From contig OZ250173.1 in NCBI GenBank assembly GCA_965238075.1, positions 1,312,001 through 1,376,000 on the forward strand: 64,000 nucleotides of DNA. Direction: 5' to 3'. The notes below the pieces were generated by a model that was not told where the DNA came from, did not search any database, and saw only the letters and a program-made list of their open reading frames with translations. Positions 475 through 11,393 of this stretch are shown in pieces. A program made the position numbers and the translations under genes. Within the stretch, counting starts at the first letter, position 1. The number at the start of each line of letters is the position of its first letter. This DNA is from Candidatus Entotheonellaceae bacterium (lineage in GTDB: Bacteria > Tectomicrobia > Entotheonellia > Entotheonellales > Entotheonellaceae).

Positions 475-603
475 GGTGTCCGTAAGAGGCTCCTCTCTTG
501 CAAATTTCATCGTACCATGCAAATGATACACATATCAGGGCCGTTGCCCGGCACTTCGATGCGGCAACACGATGGCACGTTGAACCCACCTCTTACGGAC
601 ACC
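475..603. promoter_or_regulatory. Putative res site (resolvase binding subsites)
   Basis: Perfect 15-bp inverted repeat GGTGTCCGTAAGAGG (475-489) / CCTCTTACGGACACC (589-603) directly upstream of the resolvase. Confidence 0.6.
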
Positions 604-611
604 CCCAGCAG

Positions 612-1193
612 ATGACAGCAACCCTGATCGGCTACGCCCGTTGTTCCACGGACAGACAGGACCTGACGGCACAGGGACAGGCACTGAAGGACCTCGACGT
701 CGCACCGGACCGCATCTACACGGACAAGGGTCTGACCGGCACCAACCGCGCCCGGCCCGGCCTGGGTCAGGCCATGGCCGCAGTGCGCAAGGGCGACACC
801 CTGGTGGTGCCAAAGCTGGACCGCTTGGCGAGGTCGGTTCCCGATGCCCGGCACATCGCCGATCAACTGCAGGCCAAGGGGGTGAAACTTGCCCTGGGCC
901 GCAATATCCATGACCCCAGCGATCCGATGGGCAAGATGTTCTTCAACATCCTGGCTACCTTTGCCGAGTTCGAGGCCGATCTCATTCGGATGCGCACGCG
1001 TGAGGGAATGGCCATCGCCCGCGCCAAGGGCAAGTTGCGGGGCAAGCAACCAAAACTCTCCGACAAGCAGCAAAAGGAACTTTGCCGCATGCACGCCACC
1101 GGCGACTATTCGATTGGCGATCTGGCCGAGGTCTTCGCCGTATCGCGGCCGACCGTCTACCGGACGCTCAACCGCGCGGTTCCTTCCACATAG
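612..1193 (+). CDS. Serine recombinase (resolvase/invertase) with C-terminal HTH
   Basis: IGYARCSTDRQ, RPGL, VVPKLDRLARS, AEFEADLIRMRTREG, C-terminal HTH VSRPTVYR. Confidence 0.95.
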   Translation: MTATLIGYARCSTDRQDLTAQGQALKDLDVAPDRIYTDKGLTGTNRARPGLGQAMAAVRKGDTLVVPKLDRLARSVPDARHIADQLQAKGVKLALGRNIHDPSDPMGKMFFNILATFAEFEADLIRMRTREGMAIARAKGKLRGKQPKLSDKQQKELCRMHATGDYSIGDLAEVFAVSRPTVYRTLNRAVPST

Positions 1194-1423
1194 ATCGACC
1201 TGTCTTGGAGTGCCATGTAGCGCCAAAAGAATCGTGCCATTTAGCGTTGAAAGTCACAGGTGCGGGTGGTGGCGGTTGTAAGATCAAACGCCCGTTTGAT
1301 GAGAGGACGCCGCCGTGGTGGGCGAACGTGGTTTTCGGGCCTTTGGAAAGTCTGTGAAGGTCGAAGGGCAAAGACGCGGGCAGTGGAGATCCTGAAAAGA
1401 CGAGGACGGCGAGGGGCCGGATG

Positions 1424-1537
1424 TCAGGTCAGCACCCGCAGAGCCGTTTCAGGCGCCTTGTCAAGAACCCGCAGCAGAGCCTTGACGGCACCCGTGGGAC
1501 GGCGCTTACCCTGCTCCCAGTTGCGGATGGTTTCGTG
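1424..1537 (-). pseudogene. C-terminal fragment of an XRE-HTH (HigA-like) protein
   Basis: Minus strand reads ETIRNWEQGKRRPTGAVKALLRVLDKAPETALRVLT*; N-terminus missing. Confidence 0.7.
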
Positions 1538-1943
1538 CGCCATTGATCCGTACCGCGACCGCTACGAACGGGCCTTGGGGGTGTACGCCTTGCGTGGCGG
1601 GGACCTGAACGCCTGGCTGGTGTCGCAGGGCCATGCGCTGGCGTACAGGTGTTACAGCCTGGCGTATGTCGAACAGGAAAAGGCAGCCCGGGCAGCCGGT
1701 CGAGAGATCTGGGCAGGGGAGTTCGTGGCGCCCTGAGACTGGCGGGCCGGCGAGCGGCTGGCGGCAACACCCGAGAATTCACCAGGCGACGAACTCGGTG
1801 CCCTGGCCATCTACGATGACAACGGCAACGGCCGCTTCACGTGCAAGGAGGCGAGACACCATGGCATCGCGCCGGTGAGCAGAGACCATCCGGCTTATCC
1901 GTACATACACGACCGGGACGGTGGCGGCGTGGTCTGTGAATAG
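1534..1943 (+). pseudogene. Truncated thermonuclease (SNase) + Excalibur Ca-binding domain, paralogue of 7879-8576
   Basis: DRYERALG..DLNAWLVSQGHALAY..IWAGEFVAP*DWR (TGA at 1734 where the paralogue has TGG)...DRDGGGVVCE*; 5' half absent. Confidence 0.8.
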
Positions 1944-1946
1944 CGG

Positions 1947-2045
1947 CTACGACGGGATAAACCGTACAGGATTCAAGATGGGCGCGTCATGGTTGGTGAC
2001 GCTGTTCACCCGGGTGCTGACGGGGCGTTTCTCGAAGGCGCCGGC
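1947..2045 (-). pseudogene. Possible C-terminal remnant of an SOS-response-associated peptidase (SRAP)
   Basis: AFEKRPVSTRVNSVTNHDAPILNPV resembles the SRAP C-terminal PVSxxVNxxxN motif; rest not recognisable. Confidence 0.3.
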
Positions 2046-2415
2046 GCAAGCAGCGCCGCGCCGCCAGCTATCTTGGTACAACAGGCCAAGCCGAGGCCCA
2101 TCCTGCAGCTTTTTGCCTTCCATCAAACCCCCTTTAAAGCGCCTGATACCGCACGCCGCGTCCCAAACAACAAAATCGCCTCCGCTGCCGGCACCAAAAA
2201 CGTGGCCAACACGGCTACGAGTGTTCCCGCAGCTTGGCCCTCGAGCCAGGTCTGAAGCCCTACCGCCGCCCAGAAATTTCCACCCGGCGAACCGCCGAAC
2301 TGGTTGAAGGCGTCGTCGCCTCAAGCAGAGCATCGTTGGGGAGACCGGAGGGAACCGCTTGGCCCGGCGCCGCGCACGGGGTCCTGCAGGCGGCCGAAGC
2401 CCCCGCTGGCCTACG

Positions 2416-2703
2416 TTAATTGCTCTGGAAGAGCCCACCGGCCTTCCAGTTGTACTGCCCGGAAGCCGTCCGGTTGTTGCCGACGCTATTGCTGCTAGCG
2501 GTGCTTCCTTGGCCGTTTTGCACGTGCACGTTGCAGCCCGTAAAGATGACATCGTCGACCGTACCCGCTCCCGACGCCGTGGCCATGCAGTCCGGGATGG
2601 CGTTTTGCAGGGCGGTAATCTGGGCTTGCAAGCTCGGGGTCTGTGCCGTAGATGGCAAGGCAGTGAGCCCACCGCACAGCATCACCAATACCAGGGCCTT
2701 CAT
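2416..2703 (-). CDS. Small secreted hypothetical protein, possibly internally deleted
   Basis: Signal-peptide-like MKALVLVMLCGGLTALPSTA, then IFTGCNVHVQNGQGST and NRTASGQYNWKAGGLFQSN. Confidence 0.45.
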   Translation of the reverse strand: MKALVLVMLCGGLTALPSTAQTPSLQAQITALQNAIPDCMATASGAGTVDDVIFTGCNVHVQNGQGSTASSNSVGNNRTASGQYNWKAGGLFQSN

Positions 2704-4168
2704 GAGTCGCGTCAAGGGTTGGAGTGCCGTCGGAAACGGTGCGGTATCGGAACCGCCGGAGCCAGAAGAGCCGGCGACGTGAGTGGGAAAACGATTAAGC
2801 ACACCGTCTCCGAATTATTCAAGCTTTTATGTTTTTATTTTCAAATAGTTATATGCGGATATTGTATTTTGTTGCATATTTCGTAAATTTGTGTATGTCA
2901 TTAGCCTATGTTCGAGGAGGAAACGTTACACTGTTGGAGTTCTCCCCTCAGCCAGCAGGTCAGAAATGTCTCACTCCAGTCGAACTTAGAGAGCTTCAGG
3001 GAGCCTCCTTATAAGGCGCCAGCAATGCACATTGTCTGGATCAGCTTGCAGACCTTCCTTCGCCGTGCGGCGGGCACTTTCTTCTTCGCCAGAGTGTAGG
3101 TATAGCCATGCAAGCCGGGATAGATCCGTCGCCGATGCGCCCTGTCGACGTGATTCCATGAGCTTGGCCAACGGCTTGAAGAGAGCACTGCGCTGGACAG
3201 CATCCATTTCATCAATGATTTCACGGCCACTGTTGACATGATTTGCCATAATGCTGACTTCATTCAGATCCGGTTCCTTAATCTTGGCGGCATTCAAGAA
3301 GGCATTACAGCTTCCAATAATATTTCCTATCTGATTATAGAGACGGGCCAACCGAATCCACGCCTTCTGAGTTTCCTCACTCACTGAATTCTGCTCAAGG
3401 AAATGCTCAACGCATTTGATCTCGCGTTGAGAGCCGCCACCGGTTTCCCTCTCAAGGTCGGCGCACATCAGCCAAGCTGGGGGATAATTCTGGGCCATGA
3501 ATTCCAGCATTAGCCGCACTTTGTCTATGGAATAACTACCTCTGCTAATCTGAAGGGCGACCCTCTTGAACAAAGACTCAATGCGCGGGTAGTTACCCCT
3601 TCTCAGGTCAGTATTCATGGTAGGTCCCATACTCCGAAGAAACTCGATATCATCCTGAATCAACTGGTAATCATGGCTGACTTCAAGTTTTCTGTGGCCA
3701 AACAATGCGGTTATGGTGGGCACTCCGAGGAAGTCGGGCCCATCCTCCACCTCGGTTCGTTCCAAGAGTGACATGCGAACAAGTTCGTCGACAGCTGCTT
3801 CTGGGTCCAGCCTTTCAGAACTTCGCCAACGGAGTACTGCCTCAAGGGCGAGCTGAGGTACAAGAGAACGCCATCCGCTAAGCGTCAGAAAAATACGTTT
3901 GGCCAACGGGGATAAATTGTCATATGTACGCTCAAACAGTGCGTTCAGAATATCGTCCTTACGAGCCAACATCTGGCTGGGCTTGCCAAAAGTGCCCTTG
4001 TCCGCTATTTCCCCCAGAATGATCTTGATTACATATGGATGCCCGTCTGATTCATCAATGATTTGCTCCGTCTGTTCAGAACTGATCCTGTCCAAAATGC
4101 CGAGACTTCCGGCGCTTTTCCGAATCAGCTCCTTAGCTTCTGCGTATTCCATACCAGAAACTTCTATA

Positions 4169-5461
4169 GGGCATCTCTAATAATACCCATCTCCCACATG
4201 GTTTAGAATTACTGAAACACGTCAACCAGCAAGGCCGGAGGAGTTGAACATGTCTCAGATGGGCTTTTTCGATGTCGAGAATCGCTACGCCGCTCTGGAT
4301 GCCAAGAACGATCCCTTGGTGAAAATCAATGCCGTCGTTCCTTGGGAAGCATTCCGCAGCCGCCTGGAGAACGTCTGGCGCAAGCCAGCCGACAAGCGCA
4401 AGTCCAATTCGGGGTGCAAGCCGTGGGAGCGCCATGCCATCGTCATGTTCAAAGCCATCATTTTGTGCGCCCTCTACAATCTGTCGGATGATCAAGTCGA
4501 GTATCAAATGCGCGACCGCCTGTCCTTCGTGCGCTTCTTGGGACTGGCACTTGAAGACAAGGTGCCGGACGCCAAAACCGTGTGGCTCTACCGCGAGCAG
4601 TTGTCACAGGCTGGCCTCATCGATGCCTTGTTTGAGGATTTCGACGGCTACCTGAAAAACCAGGGCTACCAGGCAATGGGTGGTCAGATCATAGATGCTT
4701 CGATTGTCGCGGTTCCCATCCAGCGCAATCGTCGTGACGACAATGAGCAGATCAAGCGCGGTGAGCTACCCGAGGCCTGGGCCGACAAGCCGGCCAAGCG
4801 TCGGCAAAAAGACAGGGATGCGCGCTGGACCAAGAAGCACGGCAAGAGCCACTATGGCTACAAGAATCACGTCAACATCGACCGTCGGCACAAGCTGATA
4901 CGGCGTTACCGGGTGACGGACGCAGCGGTGCATGACAGCCAAGTGCTTGAGGAGTTGTTGGCGTCGGACAACACGGCAAGCGGTGTCTGGGCGGACAGCG
5001 CCTACCGGTCGAAAGACACTGAAGCGAAGGTGAAAGCCAGGGGCTTGACGAGTCGGATTCATCGCAAGGCTTCTCGCAACCGCCCGTTGCGCGATTGGGA
5101 GAAAGCGGGCAACCAGAGTCGTTCCCGATTTCGGGCTCGGATAGAGCATGTCTTCGGCGCGCAGCACAACGACATGGGCGGGACTCTGGTTCGCAGCATG
5201 GGGCTTGTACGGGCGAGGGCGCGCATAGGTCTTAAGAACCTTGCCTACAACATGCGGCGCCTGGTTCACTTGCAACGTCTGGCGATGGTGGATTCACGCT
5301 AAAGGGCGCAGCGGGGTGCCGGATGCCCTCTTTGAAGGCGCCATGGCTCCTGTTGAGGAGCGACATCACCACGCAAACCGCCGTTTATTCTCTGTCGCCA
5401 TGGCGCGGCAAAGTCACTCACGCCAGTTTTGCCCGCCAGTGAGTCATTTTTCGAGGCGCCC
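4169..5461 (+). mobile_element. IS5-family insertion sequence
   Basis: Imperfect IRs GGGCATCTCTAA / GGGCGCCTCGAA; target duplication TATA (4165-4168 / 5462-5465), or CTATAG if the ends are 1 bp shorter. Confidence 0.92.
4250..5302 (+). CDS. IS5-family DDE transposase
   Basis: VPDAKTVWLYRE, IIDASIV, DARWTKKHGKSHYGYKNH, WADSAY, RARIEHVFG, NLAYNMRR. Confidence 0.95.
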   Translation: MSQMGFFDVENRYAALDAKNDPLVKINAVVPWEAFRSRLENVWRKPADKRKSNSGCKPWERHAIVMFKAIILCALYNLSDDQVEYQMRDRLSFVRFLGLALEDKVPDAKTVWLYREQLSQAGLIDALFEDFDGYLKNQGYQAMGGQIIDASIVAVPIQRNRRDDNEQIKRGELPEAWADKPAKRRQKDRDARWTKKHGKSHYGYKNHVNIDRRHKLIRRYRVTDAAVHDSQVLEELLASDNTASGVWADSAYRSKDTEAKVKARGLTSRIHRKASRNRPLRDWEKAGNQSRSRFRARIEHVFGAQHNDMGGTLVRSMGLVRARARIGLKNLAYNMRRLVHLQRLAMVDSR

Positions 5462-7208
5462 TATAGGGAAATCGGCTTTGAAGTCACGGAAACGGGTTGT
5501 TATGACCGCCTTGTTTGGCAGTCTGATGTTTGTGTCAATCCAGTGATACAGGTCAATCGGGCTGCGGACAGTTTCAAAGTTGTCAAAGACAAACAGTTTG
5601 GGACTATCTTCAGAACCATGCATGGCCTGCGGCATGGTGTTGGTGCTGGGATCGGCCACAAGGCTAGTGATCAACTTCGTATATTCCTTGTCAATTTCCT
5701 TTTCGGTGAGTGTCTTGGGTTGAACAACCTTTGGACCGGTTGGGGTCAGATCGATATCTCTTGCGCTAAACCATACGATCATCCCGTACCTATCCGTACG
5801 GGCGACTTCGTGCAGAACGCTGAGCGCGAGTGAGGTTTTACCAATGCCGCCTTGGCCAACGAGTGTGACAATCGGATGTCGGTCATTGGTCAACTTGTCT
5901 CGTATGTCCTGTTCGAGAGAAGGGCGCGTAACGTAACCAACCGGGTTGGCTGGCAAGTTAGTAAAAACTTCCCCGATGATGTCAAATTCGCTCAAACCCT
6001 CCGTCTCACTGGGAGGTCGATCCGATGGGGGTGTCAGGTACGGTTGAGCATCTCCTTTCCGGCGATTATCCGTGATAGGTGAATGCAATTCGTAGCTCTG
6101 GCCGTTAAATTTCCCATTGGGCATAAAGAAGTCAGTAGCGTCAAGATCGCTGCCAAGAAGAGGAACCAGTCTTGGCCTGCCTGCCCACAAATAAACGCCG
6201 TCCGGGTAGTTCTCCCCGTCTTCCGCCGCCGCTGTCTTCAACTCCGAAAAACAAGATGTATCGCCACCAAGTTCGATGACGTTATATCTCCCTGACAGGT
6301 TTCGATGCAGGTAGGCCCAAGGCAGTCGAAATAAAGGAGTGTTCTCAAGTAACAGTTCAATGGAACTTCGCAGACTTCGCACGAGACTGGCGCAGGTAGC
6401 TGGCGTTATTGCACCATGGCCACGGGTCTTGTTCCGCAGTTCAACAAATTTTGTGAACCAGGCACGCAGGTATACCTTTCTGCCCATGGGTTGGGCGTCA
6501 GAATAAACTCCTTCTAAAGCCTCTTGCAGGTCGCACATAGCTCTGTACTGCCAGCTATCAGTCTCAGCCCGCTGTTTAAACACAAGGAGGGCTTCATCAA
6601 AAGGAGGGGAAATTTGTTGCCAGGCCGGACCGGTACAAATGTCATCAAAGACATTCGCCCAGTCCCCAATCCCGGCGGCCCTGACGAGCCTGTGCAAGAA
6701 CTGGTACTTATAATTCTCTCTGTTGTCTTCAACTGAGGCGACGGAGGAGGCTGTTGACGTCGAGGTCTAGCACAATGAGCTTTATCGCAAATTCGCCTGC
6801 ATAGAGGAGCTCATAAAACAGTATGGGGTCGGATTCACCATTCGTTTCGACTCGCTCCATCATTTTTTTTATTGGCGTGAAGGGCATTGACTTTCTCCTC
6901 GGTCCAGGGAGGGACCCTTGACGTATTCGGCGTGAGTGCTAAGGTCGAATTTACAACACGGGGTATACAGAGCGGGAAGATCAACGGTAATTCCTTAAGA
7001 ACACAGTAGCACCCTGTTGGCCCTCTTTCAAAGTCTCTTCACCGCAGATCAGGGCGAACAGACAGTCCAAACATCCCAGACGGGGATCAGTCGTCGCAAA
7101 AACGTCCGTTAAACGAAACGGCGCCAAGCCGTCCCAGAAAACACACCGTTGGCCCATCTTGGCGTGATCCCCTGTCCACAAGACTTTCATGTCATCCGGT
7201 CATTCAGG

Positions 7209-7236
7209 TTGCCAAGCGTAACAATACATATACGAT
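7209..7236 (+). promoter_or_regulatory. sigma70-like promoter with short inverted operator upstream of higBA
   Basis: TTGCCA-16 nt-TACGAT, overlapped by CGTA-N10-TACG. Confidence 0.5.
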
Positions 7237-7241
7237 CAGGC

Positions 7242-7526
7242 ATGATACGCAACTTCAGCAGGAACCGGCTCAAGCGATTTTTCGAGCGCGGCGACAAGAG
7301 AGGTATTCATGCCGACCCGCGCGACACCGTGCGTGACATTCTGGCGCGCTTAAACGCTTCCACATCGCCTGAAGACATGAACCTGTCCGGTTTGCGGCTC
7401 CACCCCCTGAGGGGAAACCAACAGGGTTTCGGGTCGGTGACGGTACAGGCAAATTGGCGAGTCATTTTCCGCTTCGATGCAGGTGATGCCGTCGACGTCG
7501 ATTACCTGGATTATCACGAGAGGTAA
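7242..7526 (+). CDS. higB: HigB (RelE-like) toxin
   Basis: [43 protein letters not shown]. Confidence 0.9.
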
Positions 7527-7530
7527 GACC

Positions 7531-7818
7531 ATGCGGATGCACGATCCACCCCATCCCGGTCAAGTCATCAAGCGGCAGTGTCTGGTCCCTTTGCGGTTGA
7601 CCGTGACTGAGGCCGCAAAAGGGCTTGGTGTATCGCGCAATACGCTGTCGATGCTGCTCAATGGCCGCCTCGGGATATCGCCGGAGATGGCGATTCGTCT
7701 GTCACAGGGCTTCGGCGGCAGCCCGGAGAGCTGGTTGCAGCAGCAGATGCAGTACGACCTGTGGCAGGCGCAGCAACGCCAGGGCAAGATCAAGGTGAGG
7801 AAATTCGAGGCCGCATAG
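7531..7818 (+). CDS. higA: HigA antitoxin (XRE HTH)
   Basis: [48 protein letters not shown]. Confidence 0.92.
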
Positions 7819-7878
7819 CGACGCGGTGTCGATGACCTGTCAAGAACACCGCGTGCCTGGGCGGAACTGGCGCTGCGA

Positions 7879-8576
7879 TGTGGAGGGTTTTGCTTTGCTG
7901 TTTCACATCTTGATCGTTGTCGTGTGCATGGCTAGCTGGCTGCTGCCGTTGGTTGAGGGCGCCGATACCACCATCGTCGGCGGGGCGAGACGCGGGTAAT
8001 CGACGGGGACACCCTGGAAGTGAAAGGGGAGCGCGTGAGGCTCAAGGAAATCGACGCGCCGGAGAAGGGACAATTGTGCGAGAACGCTGCTGGCAAACTT
8101 TATCCGTGCGGCCAGGTGGTAATCGGCGTGCTGCTCGGACGCATCGGCGACAGCAACGTGGCGTGCGCTATTGATCGGCAGCGCGACCGCTACGGACGGG
8201 CCCTGGGGTGTGCTCCGTGCACGGCGCAGACCTGAACGCCTGGCTGGTGTCCCAGGGCTATGCGTTGGCGTACAGGCGCTATAGCCTGCGGTATGTGGAA
8301 CAGGAAGAGGCAGCTCGGGCAGCCGGGCGAGGCCTGTGGGCAGGAGACTTCGTGGCGCCCTGGGACTGGCGGGCCGGCGAGCGGCTGTGGGCGAGGTCGC
8401 CGACCGTGGAATCACCAGGCGACGAGCTCGATGCCCCGGCCATGTACGACGACAACAGCAACGGCCGGATCACGTGCAAGGAGGCGAGGCGACATGGCAT
8501 CGCGCCGGTGAGCAGAGACCATCCGGCGCATCCATACATGGACGACCGGGACGGTGACGGTGTGGTCTGTGAATAA
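7879..8576 (+). pseudogene. Secreted thermonuclease + Excalibur domain, two frameshifts
   Basis: Hydrophobic leader, VIDGDTLEV..RVRLKEIDAPE..DRYGRALG, GLWAGDFVAPWDWR, DRDGDGVVCE; frame breaks near 7990 and 8208. Confidence 0.85.
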
Positions 8577-8916
8577 GCGAATTACCCCCCTTGTCTGACC
8601 TTGTCCTGGGGGAAAGATCGTGCTGTGTGCCATCCTCGTGCGCTGTTTGGTGGGGCGGCGGCCCAAATTTCCGACAAGCGACCGCTTTCTGCAGGGCCTA
8701 GGATGCATCCGGATCGGCTGCCGGGGAGCTGCACGACGTCGGCCCGGATGTCGGTTTCATCCCACCGGGGCACCAAAAAGCGGCGGTTGTTGTGCCCGTC
8801 TCCCCACCGCCTTCGGACGATTTCGGCGCTTTTCCGGCATCCGGTGGGACGTTCTGGAGGCCTGCGGCGCCAGATCGCGCAAGTCCAGTAACGACGCGGG
8901 TTTCAGCCAATGGCAA

Positions 8917-8945
8917 AGTTTATATATAATAGTCTTATCGGAAGT
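8917..8945 (-). other. Degenerate XerC/XerD (dif-like) site
   Basis: Minus strand ACTTCCGATAA-GACTA-TTATATATAAACT; good XerC-like arm, but 5-bp spacer and extra TA in the XerD-like arm. Confidence 0.5.
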
Positions 8946-8975
8946 TGGCGTAGACGACAGAGGGAGGAATGATAG

Positions 8976-9742
8976 ATGCCAGAGACGAAGCGACTCTATT
9001 ACTTTACACCGACAAAATACGGCTTGAAGGCCGTAAAACACCTACGACTGAAAACTGCTGAACTGGACAAGGTAAACGACCCTTACGAATTATTGCCATT
9101 TCAACCGAAGAACAACATTTCGGATGAAGCATTTCAGCGGATTAAAAATAATCTATCAAAGACAATTAAGATAGTCTGCCTTAGCAAGACATACCACAAT
9201 CCTTCGTTGTGGGGACACTATGCTGATAAAGGTAAGGGAATATGTCTCGGTTTTGATATAAAAAAAGATAACAGTGAGATACTTTTGGAAAAAATAAAAT
9301 ATACGAAAGACAAATTGACAACTAGCTTTGGAGATAGCTGGGTGGATGGAGAACTATCCATTGATGACATCAATAATCATAATTTCTATAAAGACATGCG
9401 ACGTCACAAATCACATCACTGGAAACACGAAAAGGAATGGCGTACCTGGACCGTTGCCAAAGACCTAGAACTAGACCCAATTACCGGCTTTTACTTTTTA
9501 CATTTCGGATTGCATTTCGAAAGCCCGTTAAGACTACGTAAGATATTGATCGGGCCTCGCAGCGAGGAGGAAAACATAAAAAGCAACGTTGCCGGCTTGA
9601 AAGGTTGACCGCCGACTACCCTGAGCCAAAACCGAAGATTATCTTCACCCGCCCATCATCTTCCACTTTTAAGATCGGCTGCGTCGATATGCAGCTTGTA
9701 GCCGACCCAGGATTCAAGATGGATAAAGATAGGCAAAAGTAA
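8976..9742 (+). CDS. DUF2971-family protein, probable frameshift near the C-terminus
   Basis: LYYFT, VNDPYE, SLWGHYADKGKGICLGF, KSHHWKHEKEWR, ILIGPR; AT-rich; ORF stops at 9608 but another frame continues KIIFTRPSSSTFKI to TAA at 9742. Confidence 0.8.
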
Positions 9743-9764
9743 CATAACCGCCCTTATGCGAAGT
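9737..9764 (-). other. XerC/XerD (dif/pdif-like) recombination site
   Basis: Minus strand ACTTCGCATAA-GGGCGG-TTATGTTACTT: 11-6-11 architecture matching dif GGTGCGCATAA-N6-TTATGTTAAAT. Confidence 0.78.
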
Positions 9765-9785
9765 TTGCGGTCAAGGAGGTGACTC

Positions 9786-10430
9786 TTGATGCGATATCGA
9801 GGCTTGTACTTGCTGATGTGCGGGCTTGTTCTCGCAGCGGCAGTGGACGCGGCGCAGGACAAAAATATTGCCGAGCAGGAGCGGCCATTCAGTCGTACCT
9901 CGGTCTCGTTTAAAGATCCAAAAGGAGCTAGAAAACCGGTCAAGGTGACTCTTGATGCGAGGTGTTCTCGCAGCGGCAGTGGACGCGGCGCAGGACAAAA
10001 ATATTGCCGAGCAGGAGCGGCCATTCAGTCGTACCTCGGTCTCGTTTTCCAGGAGCTAGAAAACCACAAGCGAAGGTCGCCGAGCGCAGTGGCCTGGACG
10101 GCCGGGTCGTGTTGCGTTTCACCCTGCGCCGGGACGGGGTAGTACTCAACCCGGAGGTCATCGAGGTCACTGGGCATGATTCGTTTCGCGAGGCGGCACT
10201 GCAAGCCTTGGCGGGGGTCGGTCAATTGCCACGGTTTCCCGACGAGATTCGACGCCGTGAACTCTTGGTGGAAGTGCCCATTAACTATCGGATTGTAGAA
10301 AGCCCATTGCGCCGGGACGGGGTAGTACTCAACCCGGAGGGTCGAGGCAGCAAGCCTTGGCGGGGGTCGGGTAATTCGACGCCGTGAACTCGCCCATTAA
10401 CTATCGGATTGTAGAAAGGTCCAGTTCGAA
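9786..10430 (+). pseudogene. TonB C-terminal domain protein, scrambled by tandem duplications and deletions
   Basis: Signal peptide MRYRGLYLLMCGLVLAAAVDA; AERSGLDGRVVLRFTLRRDGVVLNPEVIEVTGHDSFREAALQAL..VEVPINY; repeated blocks. Confidence 0.7.
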
Positions 10431-10760
10431 AGCTGTGGCAGATGACGACGCTATAGAGAAGTACCGGAACTACACGCCGGAACAGTTGGGAGAATTGCCG
10501 CAAGAGACGATCAGTAGCGAAGTTCCCATCATGTACACGATGGCTGCAAGGCGCGCACTGTCACTTGGCGGGGAACTGAGCTGGTATTCGGGATGGAACT
10601 CAACGCGTTGATGTATCCGGGACTTCACGACTTTGAAGGGGCCGTTAAGTTATTCCAGAAGGATCTGGGGGACGAACCAACCGGCATTCTCACGGTCTGG
10701 CAGATTCACAATCTCCAGAAAAGGGCTGAAATGCAGAAGTTGGGGCAACTTATTTTTCCT
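10430..10760 (+). pseudogene. Fragment of a hypothetical protein with a peptidoglycan-binding-like segment
   Basis: AVKLFQKDLGDEPTGILT resembles PG_binding_1; frameshift near 10580. Confidence 0.35.
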
Positions 10761-11171
10761 GATCACCGTGGCATGAAGGAAACGCCTGCTCAGACCTGGG
10801 GTCCTGCGAAGTGGAATAAGGTGAGAAGAGGGCTTGTCGAGTTGCTGAAGAGTCCTGAAGTGGGACTGCATTCCGCGTCGGCGGTAGCGGAGCGTTTGGG
10901 GGTTGCTCCTAGCACGCTGAAGAAACACTGCCCCGAGGAATATGCCGCTCTGAAGAAGGCTCGTGCGGCGCGGCTGGCAGGTGAACGGAAGCGTGGATTT
11001 GCGGAGAAGGAAGCCGCTCTTCATGCTGCCTTTGAGGAGTGTCTGAGGAAGGGGTTGCACCCGTCAAAGGATCTAGTTTTTGAAGGTGCGGGTCTTTCTC
11101 CGGCTTTGTACATGAATTTAAGGTATCGCCAACTGTTTCGAGAGATAAGGCGAAGTGGCGGCCTAATCTAG
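10760..11171 (+). pseudogene. Possible C-terminal HTH region of a TniQ/TnsD-like protein
   Basis: SASAVAERLGVAPSTLKKHCPEEYAAL...AAFEECLRKGLHPSKDLV resembles the repeated C-terminal HTH units of long TniQ proteins; ends about 150 bp from the tRNA 3' end. Confidence 0.45.
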
Positions 11172-11319
11172 GCGGAAGTTTGGATATTGGAGAAGAATGT
11201 AGAGGTGTGAAGCTGCTGTGATTGGGACGGACGATCCGTGGTTGGACAGGATATCTGGCGGTACCGCCAGAATTCTTGAAACAAAACAAAACAGGTAGTT
11301 AAGGGTGTAAAAGGGCAGG

Positions 11320-11393
11320 TCGGGGCGCCCGGATTTGAACCGGGGGCCTTCGGCTCCCAAAGCCGACGCGCTACCAGGCTACGCTACGCCCCG
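11320..11393 (-). tRNA. tRNA-Pro (anticodon TGG), CCA not encoded
   Basis: CGGGGCG acceptor stem, D-arm TAGCGTAGCCTGGTAGCGC, anticodon arm TCGGC-TTTGGGA-GCCGA, T-arm CCCGGTTCAAATCCGGG. Confidence 0.97.

Follow-up and report, generated by a model that had tools for sequence, protein, structure and literature searches.

To our knowledge, nearly all Xer-dependent gene modules described so far come from plasmids of Acinetobacter; they disseminate drug resistance there, and the mechanism of their movement is debated. Core Xer sites are also known from the plasmid sites cer and psi, in which ~180-200 bp of conserved accessory DNA on the XerC side serve dimer resolution, and the attC sites of integrons are 57-141 bp long, folded, and composed of R''/L''/L'/R' boxes. 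Neighboring sites of the Acinetobacter modules alternate between the C/D and D/C orientations, and the modules share inverted sites (PMC12907356). Mobile elements that integrate by exploiting Xer (IMEXs) insert at dif itself; they comprise phages, satellites and islands, which have replication or transfer genes of their own. Here we describe two dif-like sites that bracket a single AT-rich gene in a Candidatus Entotheonellaceae bacterium (contig OZ250173.1). The window, i.e. the whole 64-kb stretch that was analyzed, covers G000:1312001-1376000, where G000 is the source genome, a single contig of 3.35 Mb; five congeners (G001-G005) complete the genus set (n = 6), L-numbers denote extracted loci, and window features are collected in Table 1. 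The presence of the two sites around the gene is real and beyond chance, and they are best explained as the boundaries of a single-gene mobile cassette within a genus-wide gene-capture system of dif mimics. An initial annotation, made from the window alone, had interpreted the gene as a cassette bounded by Xer sites, and this interpretation is supported by the data below.

Sites, arrays and cassettes

The second site of the pair has its core at 9737-9764 (AAGTAACATAA-CCGCCC-TTATGCGAAGT, 11-6-11), occurs once in the window, and differs on its minus strand by one mismatch from a generic dif consensus, with 0.00 such matches expected; the initial annotation had called it near-canonical. The first site, which had been reported as degenerate and placed at 8917-8945, is indeed present and is best read as 8917-8946, with a 7-bp centre and one change from the family left arm (right arm and trailing base: TTATCGGAAGT(T)). 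Both have a dif-type layout, i.e. two ~11-nt imperfectly inverted arms around a centre of 6 to 8 bp (11-7-11 and 11-6-11, respectively). They lie in the same orientation and are both preceded by GGCAAA (8912-8917 and 9732-9737), and each is shortly followed by a ribosome-binding site (RBS) and a start codon, namely GGGAGG and ATG 8976 with a gap of 29 nt, and AAGGAGG and TTG/ATG 9786/9789 with a gap of 20-23 nt, all of which agrees with what had been annotated. The same holds for the composition of the enclosed gene, the cassette body being far more AT-rich than its host (GC 0.42 vs 0.62 in the genome). The TAA stop of this gene, which encodes a DUF2971 protein, falls at 9740-9742 within the left arm of site 2. 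Two further DUF2971 cassettes, at G000:2076738 and L037:3406, are also closed by the centre CCGCCC.

A 24-nt core, ACATAATATAACTTATCAGAAGTT, was found exactly once in each of the six genus genomes, each time ~20 kb from a xerD-type gene. We take the proposed genus dif to be AGTTTACATAA-TATAAC-TTATCAGAAGT at G000:3139036. By manual count, the arms of site 1 are identical to those of this dif at 9/11 and 10/11 positions, and those of site 2 at 8/11 and 9/11; the window sites thus resemble a host dif that lies elsewhere, a comparison left to be made by the initial annotation. The window sites themselves are strain-specific, absent at the tRNA-Pro locus in all five congeners, and situated ~0.54 Mb from dnaA, none of which fits a chromosomal dif. 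In G000, dnaA is located at 1.86 Mb, and the cumulative GC skew has its minimum at 1.0-1.9 Mb and its maximum near the contig ends, and because of these positions the window locus is not the terminus. On the same grounds, and given the conserved single-copy site at 3.139 Mb, we rejected the possibility that the window holds the chromosomal dif together with a stack of IMEXs.

A strict pattern, ACATA-N7,8-TTATNNGAAGTT, was searched in 41 genomes (the six of the genus and 35 outside it), with the reversed pattern as a control. It was matched 14, 15, 4, 25, 1 and 5 times in G000-G005, respectively, and the control yielded no match in any of the 41 genomes. The genome with a single match has its dif only, and sites beyond the single dif were found in G000 and in four of the five congeners. 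Outside the genus, no genome had more than one strict match; eight had one each, several of these with a similar AT-rich centre. A relaxed two-arm scan, allowing at most 4 mismatches, identified 30 sites in G000, compared to 7, 2 and 5 in three reversed-arm controls. The cassette sites keep both dif arms, and their centres vary, being mostly GC-rich and 6 or 7 bp long. In G000 there are nine same-orientation groups of sites, comparable arrays occur in G001, G003 and G005, and arrays reach up to four sites. The initial annotation proposed a scan of the genome and its relatives for site-gene-site arrays and would have abandoned its reading if no further sites existed; such arrays are found in both, and on this point it is borne out.

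The units between the sites were analyzed in 30 intervals between consecutive same-orientation sites (10 from G000 and 20 from the extracted loci of the relatives), in long-read assemblies that carry indel errors. Of these, 27 are below the genome-mean GC. The longest forward open reading frame (ORF) stops 2-11 nt inside the next site in eight intervals, or nine with the corrected window gene, usually by a TGA or TAA at left-arm positions 4-6, and it ends at most 80 nt ahead of the site in another nine. The ends of the ORFs thus track the sites across the intervals, where a lack of correlation would have spoken against the initial annotation. Some intervals contain an insertion sequence (IS) or a group II intron.

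The cargo is diverse. A four-site array at 3.298-3.301 Mb in G000 holds DUF5677, DUF6988 and an FRG-TPR protein, and other cassettes encode e.g. a trypsin-like protease and small unassigned ORFs. Five diverged DUF2971 cassettes are known (33-48% amino acid identity), four of which have dif-like sites on both sides; for the fifth, in G003:C253, the upstream platform site alone was found. PADLOC linked the DUF2971 proteins to PDC-S31 (4e-25) and the FRG protein to PDC-S15, both candidate families, in line with the defence-type cargo that had been annotated. The DUF2971 cargo is accordingly a candidate defence gene, which may act against phages. A 4.2-kb unit between two mimics at G000:C1:445778-450072 (L002) comprises a trypsin-like protease, a group II intron reverse transcriptase/maturase and a DUF2513-like ORF, and both of its cargo genes run opposite to the site orientation.

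Site 1 is preceded by a conserved ~190-bp arm, which was not mentioned in the initial annotation. Sequences that precede the first site in six other groups or single sites of G000 share 72-84% identity with the window arm, and arm copies number seven in G000, six in G001, one in G002, nine in G003 and three in G005. An alignment of 20 arms showed that a near-invariant AAAGTTTACATAT links the arm to the site, and that indels are not multiples of three. Six of the nine G000 arrays begin with an arm-bearing site, and one arm (3066948) occurs with a single site. The arm may be accessory DNA like that of cer and psi, or may be attI-like with a promoter. For an RNA structure, RNAalifold gave one 7-bp helix of the near-invariant boxes with a covariation term of -0.21, and no Rfam family was matched, so that this candidate was rejected for want of covariation and of an Rfam match. 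TATAAT is found inside nine of the 20 aligned platform sites (manual count), without a -35 box, and the promoter scan called nothing there; for a sigma-70 promoter in the arm or cassette, it gave one weak in-gene match, fewer than in shuffles. No RNA run was found to contain the stretch. Two weaker single sites, at G000:C1:148005 and 1928810, have ~190 bp upstream that are similar to each other (73.5%) and unlike the main arm, which may constitute a second arm type.

Cassette movement and the host Xer recombinases

The contents behind orthologous arms turn over. Locus E, between a D-glutamate-cyclase-like gene and an alcohol dehydrogenase, has a shared arm and platform site in G000 and G001, with 93% identity outward from the site. 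Behind it, G000 carries a single DUF2971 cassette that is broken by an IS, and G001 carries three unrelated cassettes of ~600-740 bp. At locus F, the arm is present with differing contents in G000, G001 and G005, and the flanks abut, 5 nt apart, in G004. Copies of the HigBA pair that lies upstream of the window platform are found in G003:C48 (93% identical) and G003:C78 (89%), each then followed by an arm and a site, with different DNA downstream. In G003:C53 (L037), the counterpart of window positions 8427-8947 (69% identical) consists of the SNase/Excalibur gene, arm and site, after which come a 915-bp cassette and then a DUF2971 cassette ending in ..ACATAACCGCCC.. as in site 2. Furthermore, an ORF-less cassette of ~190 bp occurs in three contexts, i.e. 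three arrays in two genomes (L031:5165-5411, L036:2019-2265 and L043:1082-1323), with unrelated neighbors on both sides. Its G001 and G003 copies are ~97% identical; the likeness extends from TTATCGGAAGTT to ..GGCRACATAAAA and is lost within the last 4 nt of the centre, the last shared stretch at the right end being ..ACATAAAA. Unit boundaries that lie within the centre are the hallmark of site-specific exchange. The same cassette carries a long GC-rich hairpin, GAAGAGCCGCGCGGG...CCCGCGCGGCTCTTC, and could be a terminator, or a small RNA, in cassette form.

In our reading, to which we assign a probability of roughly 0.6, circular cassettes, each with one dif mimic, would recombine with the arm-linked platform site through the host XerC and XerD. 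Both proteins are encoded in G000 (XerD at 3118636-3119592: TIGR02225, 370 bits; XerC at 818724-819665: TIGR02224, 337.5 bits) and score above the NCBIfam cut-off. A PF00589 search of G000 found no intact tyrosine recombinase beyond these two, the other matches being a split Tn3-type small recombinase and one stop-interrupted gene, and nothing else. The sites mimic the host dif and the genome lacks further intact tyrosine recombinases, so that catalysis by Xer is the reading that fits best, and we infer on these two grounds that XerC and XerD would be the catalysts of cassette movement. Among G000-G005, the occurrence of arrays does not follow the distribution of any recombinase type. The 198-aa tyrosine recombinases of G001 and G003 were rejected as the cassette enzyme, as they resemble transposon resolvases, one of them is adjacent to a transposase of the Tn3 family, and the copy in G000 is split.

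The proposed mechanism is as follows. The arm and its fused dif-like site would constitute a landing platform, into which circular cassettes, each consisting of one gene and one dif-like site, would be inserted successively by the host XerC/XerD. An integrated cassette would have the XerC-type right arm, the RBS and the start codon first and its own XerD-type left arm last, the latter often providing the stop. The right arm, RBS and start codon would consequently move with the following gene; the first site of an array would keep the canonical left arm, and later sites would bear cassette-specific left arms doubling as stop codons. The exchange would be of one strand and be resolved by replication. 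The circular form of the cassettes and a role of the arm as an accessory or promoter region are likewise presumed.

A number of observations weigh against this mechanism. The centres differ between neighboring sites (6 and 7 bp), and in the E. coli paradigm unlike centres block the complete two-step XerCD exchange, although some IMEXs use a one-strand exchange that is resolved through replication. The unlike centres would thus make full two-step exchange poor, keep the arrays stable and point to the one-strand pathway. Three of the nine G000 arrays have no arm, the longest ORF is on the reverse strand in several of the 30 intervals, and the relaxed scan carries a background of 2-7 matches. No dif-like site is present at the empty G004 junction of locus F, and the platforms are therefore gained or lost in a different way. 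The proposed dif is ~430 kb off the maximum of the cumulative GC skew, and the replichores counted from dnaA are unequal (~1.28 and 2.07 Mb). The cumulative skew of G000 does not close either (net +12,800), and these three features together suggest a rearrangement or mis-assembly in G000. Lastly, the empty-site alleles or circular intermediates that the initial annotation proposed to look for did not turn up: no solid joint of either kind was found in the public contigs of 4 runs (2 studies), where the cassette is at the same depth as its flanks. Two weak joints, 8947>9735 (depth 3.9, 30-nt side) and 8947>9527, both under the tool's own warning, were rejected as evidence for such forms (sides of 20-30 nt, depths 3.9 and 11).

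The lack of excision in those contigs would also fit another recombinase, dedicated or borne by a phage or plasmid and recognizing dif-like sites, which is not encoded here and has left arrays that are now static. We consider this unlikely. G003, the genome with the most sites, does have the most PF00589 matches (23), among them a protein of 308 aa that scores best with the model of the integron-integrase subfamily (180 bits; cut-off, 265). However, this protein is situated on a site-free 2.9-kb contig in an assembly with 6% contamination, and G000 and G001 have 14 and 15 strict sites, respectively, without such a protein. Moreover, in both arms the sites are copies of the genus dif, and not of a foreign site.

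Markedly less probable is that the units are remnants of ordinary Xer-exploiting elements, i.e. phages or plasmids of the IMEX type whose integration into secondary dif-like sites was followed by decay to a single gene. A long distance separates the loci from dif (the window at 1.32 Mb vs 3.14 Mb), the cassettes examined contain no replication, phage or plasmid genes, and each unit is a single gene with its start and stop at the sites, such units recurring in arrays of up to four sites behind a conserved arm. Direct dif-like repeats around foreign low-GC DNA are nonetheless what IMEX integration leaves, and some units are larger and mixed, such as the one at 445778-450072 with its reverse transcriptase. 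As for a repeat of regulatory or structural function, such as an operator or a palindrome of the terminator type, that is dispersed, resembles dif by chance and is no recombination site, the imperfect palindromes at intergenic positions and the TATAAT embedded in the platform site would suit it, but we regard it as very improbable given arms of 11 nt and a 6-7-bp spacing that follow the genus dif, identity between copies of one cassette that stops inside the central region, contents that vary behind orthologous arms, and a copy number of 1-25 among congeners.

The window island and its gene models

The initial annotation had placed the sites on a chromosomal island, and this was confirmed, the island being a 10-kb strain-specific segment. 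G005 is collinear with the window up to ~1278 and lacks ~1279-11287, and the five congeners match again, at 91-93%, from 11288 or 11297 onward, at the tRNA-Pro and a LysR gene. The right border was set at 11288, where conserved sequence resumes. None of the five congeners has a site beside the tRNA-Pro, and from these alignments the platform is therefore located at the tRNA-proximal end of the island. The island cargo consists of two SNase-type genes, a TPR protein, an IS, a STAND/NB-ARC NTPase and HigBA. Neither an integrase nor an att repeat was found in 1279-11287, and a direct repeat at the tRNA end was rejected as the att site of the island, as there is none of at least 13 nt.

A solitary good mimic, AGTTAACAGA-atgccgc-TTATCCGAAGTT, is found 1.7 kb ahead of the window (G000:C1:1310276-1310304), between a PIN/FitA-like pair and an acyl-CoA dehydrogenase, with a more degenerate copy at the same place in G005. 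Since G005 has this degenerate form but no island, the site is a separate, solitary one, and it was rejected as the head of the window array.

Table 1. Features of the window, with positions counted from its first nucleotide.
Feature	Position	Strand	Description
Serine resolvase gene	498-1193		Just outside the left edge of the island
IS (DDE_Tnp_1)	4244-5302		Many copies in G001 and G002
STAND/NB-ARC NTPase	5444-6697	-	
HigB/HigA toxin-antitoxin pair	7149-7818	+	Pfam HigB-like_toxin 1e-15, HTH_3 6e-10; upstream of platform
SNase/Excalibur nuclease-like gene	8208-8576	+	Pfam Excalibur, SNase; just upstream of arm; same in G003:C53
Platform arm	8730-8916	+	Conserved non-coding leader fused to site 1; boxes CCCACC / CCCACCG / CGGTGGG invariant
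Site 1, platform site	8917-8946	+	AGTTTATATAT-AATAGTC-TTATCGGAAGTT; dif mimic, 7-bp centre, embeds TATAAT
DUF2971 cassette gene	8961-9742	+	RBS 8961-8966, ATG 8976, TAA 9740-9742; Pfam DUF2971 3.5e-8; PADLOC PDC-S31 4e-25
Site 2, cassette-borne site	9737-9765	+	AAGTAACATAA-CCGCCC-TTATGCGAAGTT
Next unit, TonB_C-domain gene	9773-10611	+	RBS, signal-peptide-like start; Pfam TonB_C 2.5e-10; TIGR01352; badly mis-assembled in the window
192-aa ORF, family unassigned	10593-11171	+	Weak Pfam HTH_20 match only
Possible decayed terminal half-site (weak)	11145-11182	+	..GGCGGAAGTTTGG; overlaps the stop of the 192-aa ORF; read by eye
tRNA-Pro(TGG)	11318-11393	-	ARAGORN, Rfam

Several gene models in the window are affected by assembly errors. 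Homologs of the DUF2971 protein align to the frame of 8976 and then to that of 9605, so that the window copy appears frameshifted. The public contigs of all three covering runs lack 8 nt at 9581-9589 and 39 nt at 9675-9713, and the read-based removal of both inserts, by coordinates, opens a 239-aa DUF2971 frame that ends at the TAA within site 2. The frameshift is an assembly error, because the contigs of all three covering runs give this intact frame; the initial annotation, which had corrected for a frameshift, was consequently right about the position of the stop in the second site and wrong in taking the frameshift as real. The extra 39-nt piece falls into a bin whose depth is very high, and it is similar to a repeat of G001 loci.

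In the TonB_C region, the contigs of all four runs (2 studies) lack 9827-9962, have 23 other nt in place of 10303-10426, and contain 7 extra nt after 10070; the first of these is a spurious duplication of 136 nt and the second a replaced stretch of 124 nt. The odd "compressed repeats" in this gene are therefore also assembly errors, given the same contig disagreements, and the gene keeps one frame change after contig-based correction. The 192-aa ORF that follows has no PADLOC or NCBIfam match, and no site was found between it and the TonB_C gene; a candidate third site there, just GCGAAGTT near ~10519, was judged to be a chance occurrence. The half-site at the end of the 192-aa ORF retains only GGAAGTT of the right arm and was missed by the two-arm scan. 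Integron-like arrays of the kind proposed by the initial annotation occur across the genome, whereas the window itself holds one cleanly bounded cassette and a next unit that ends at most in a degenerate half-site.

Wider occurrence and comparison with known systems

A scan of one genome per species gave cases beyond the genus, the two described here being among the matches listed. In Ectobacillus panaciterrae DSM 19096, a cultured member of the Bacillota, there are 105 pattern matches (control: 0), with same-orientation site-gene-site arrays (L182-L187, G041) that carry Imm8, GNAT, SnoaL-like and MerR/TipAS genes. Its likely dif has the centre TATATA. Relative to the sites, the genes have the opposite polarity, and tyrosine-recombinase genes lie next to some of the arrays (C23 and C62). 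Candidatus Versatilivorator (L188, G042), another genus within the wider group of the symbiont, has 8 sites in total, and three same-orientation mimics with 7-bp centres, 0.8 and 1.9 kb apart, at 2351-5072; the reverse strand carries the longest ORFs of the gaps and of the DNA just beyond them, the one after the third site encoding a Sel1-repeat protein. Given the Ectobacillus arrays and this three-site array, an integron-like device might not be confined to the genus. Tentatively, and at clearly less than even odds, XerC/XerD and the arm may form a second, integrase-free kind of integron, which would store and shuffle single defence or accessory genes on many platforms, beyond the genus.

The enzymes of dimer resolution would be borrowed in an unrelated uncultured lineage, with an integron-like layout of platform, direct sites and single-gene cassettes. 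If Xer catalysis holds, integron-style capture can arise without a dedicated integrase, and a class of mobile cassettes is missed by current integron and mobile-element finders, which would bear on the origin of integrons from Xer-type systems. The question can be put to the test with the many natural variants of the sites and with what may be a culturable parallel in Ectobacillus.

The known systems nearest to the cassettes are the Acinetobacter pdif/dif modules, IMEXs and integrons, none of which fits. The Acinetobacter modules are genes bounded by 28-bp mimics of the host dif, have no recombinase of their own and form multi-module islands, including chromosomal ones (PMC12907356). Here too, genes are bounded by dif mimics and no recombinase is found in the module. 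However, the Acinetobacter modules are mostly plasmid-borne and larger, often hold several genes or IS, and carry resistance cargo, whereas the present system has single genes abutting their sites, arm-headed arrays and scattered chromosomal loci in a Tectimicrobiota-type host. Its sites are in the same orientation, i.e. sites 1 and 2 and all array sites are co-oriented, and inverted pairs were not found. Full-text literature searches, in which subscription journals were not covered, yielded no account of chromosomal cassettes bounded by direct repeats of dif mimics outside Acinetobacter.

With IMEXs (CTXphi, TLCphi, VGJphi and the gonococcal genetic island), which use the host XerC/D, the system shares directly repeated dif-like sites and tandem stacking. 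It differs in its single-gene cassettes and in its distance of 1.8 Mb from dif, the window locus lying at 1.32 Mb and dif at 3.139 Mb. The arm resembles the accessory DNA of cer and psi in being conserved on one side of the core, though here it is on the XerD-type side and heads cassette arrays.

Integrons and clusters of attC sites lacking integron-integrases (CALINs) are similar in organization, namely in having a platform and, behind it, a co-oriented array of cassettes that are mostly single and low in GC, with boundaries inside the recombination site, and in both systems ORF-less cassettes and accessory or defence-like cargo occur. Same-orientation arrays with boundaries inside the site were indeed found here. 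In contrast to integrons, there is neither IntI nor a folded attC; the integron-integrase models scored below cut-off on the G000 XerC and XerD, and nothing recombinase-like was found beside the arm. The sites are instead dif mimics of 28-29 bp and of a double-strand type, with many small platforms per genome where an integron has one, and an attC reading of sites 1 and 2 was rejected by eye, as no consistent RYYYAAC/GTTRRRY boxes surround them. Each of the known families, i.e. Acinetobacter modules, IMEXs and integrons, fails at least one defining test, and we file the system as a variant, namely as Xer-exploiting gene modules with an integron-like organization.

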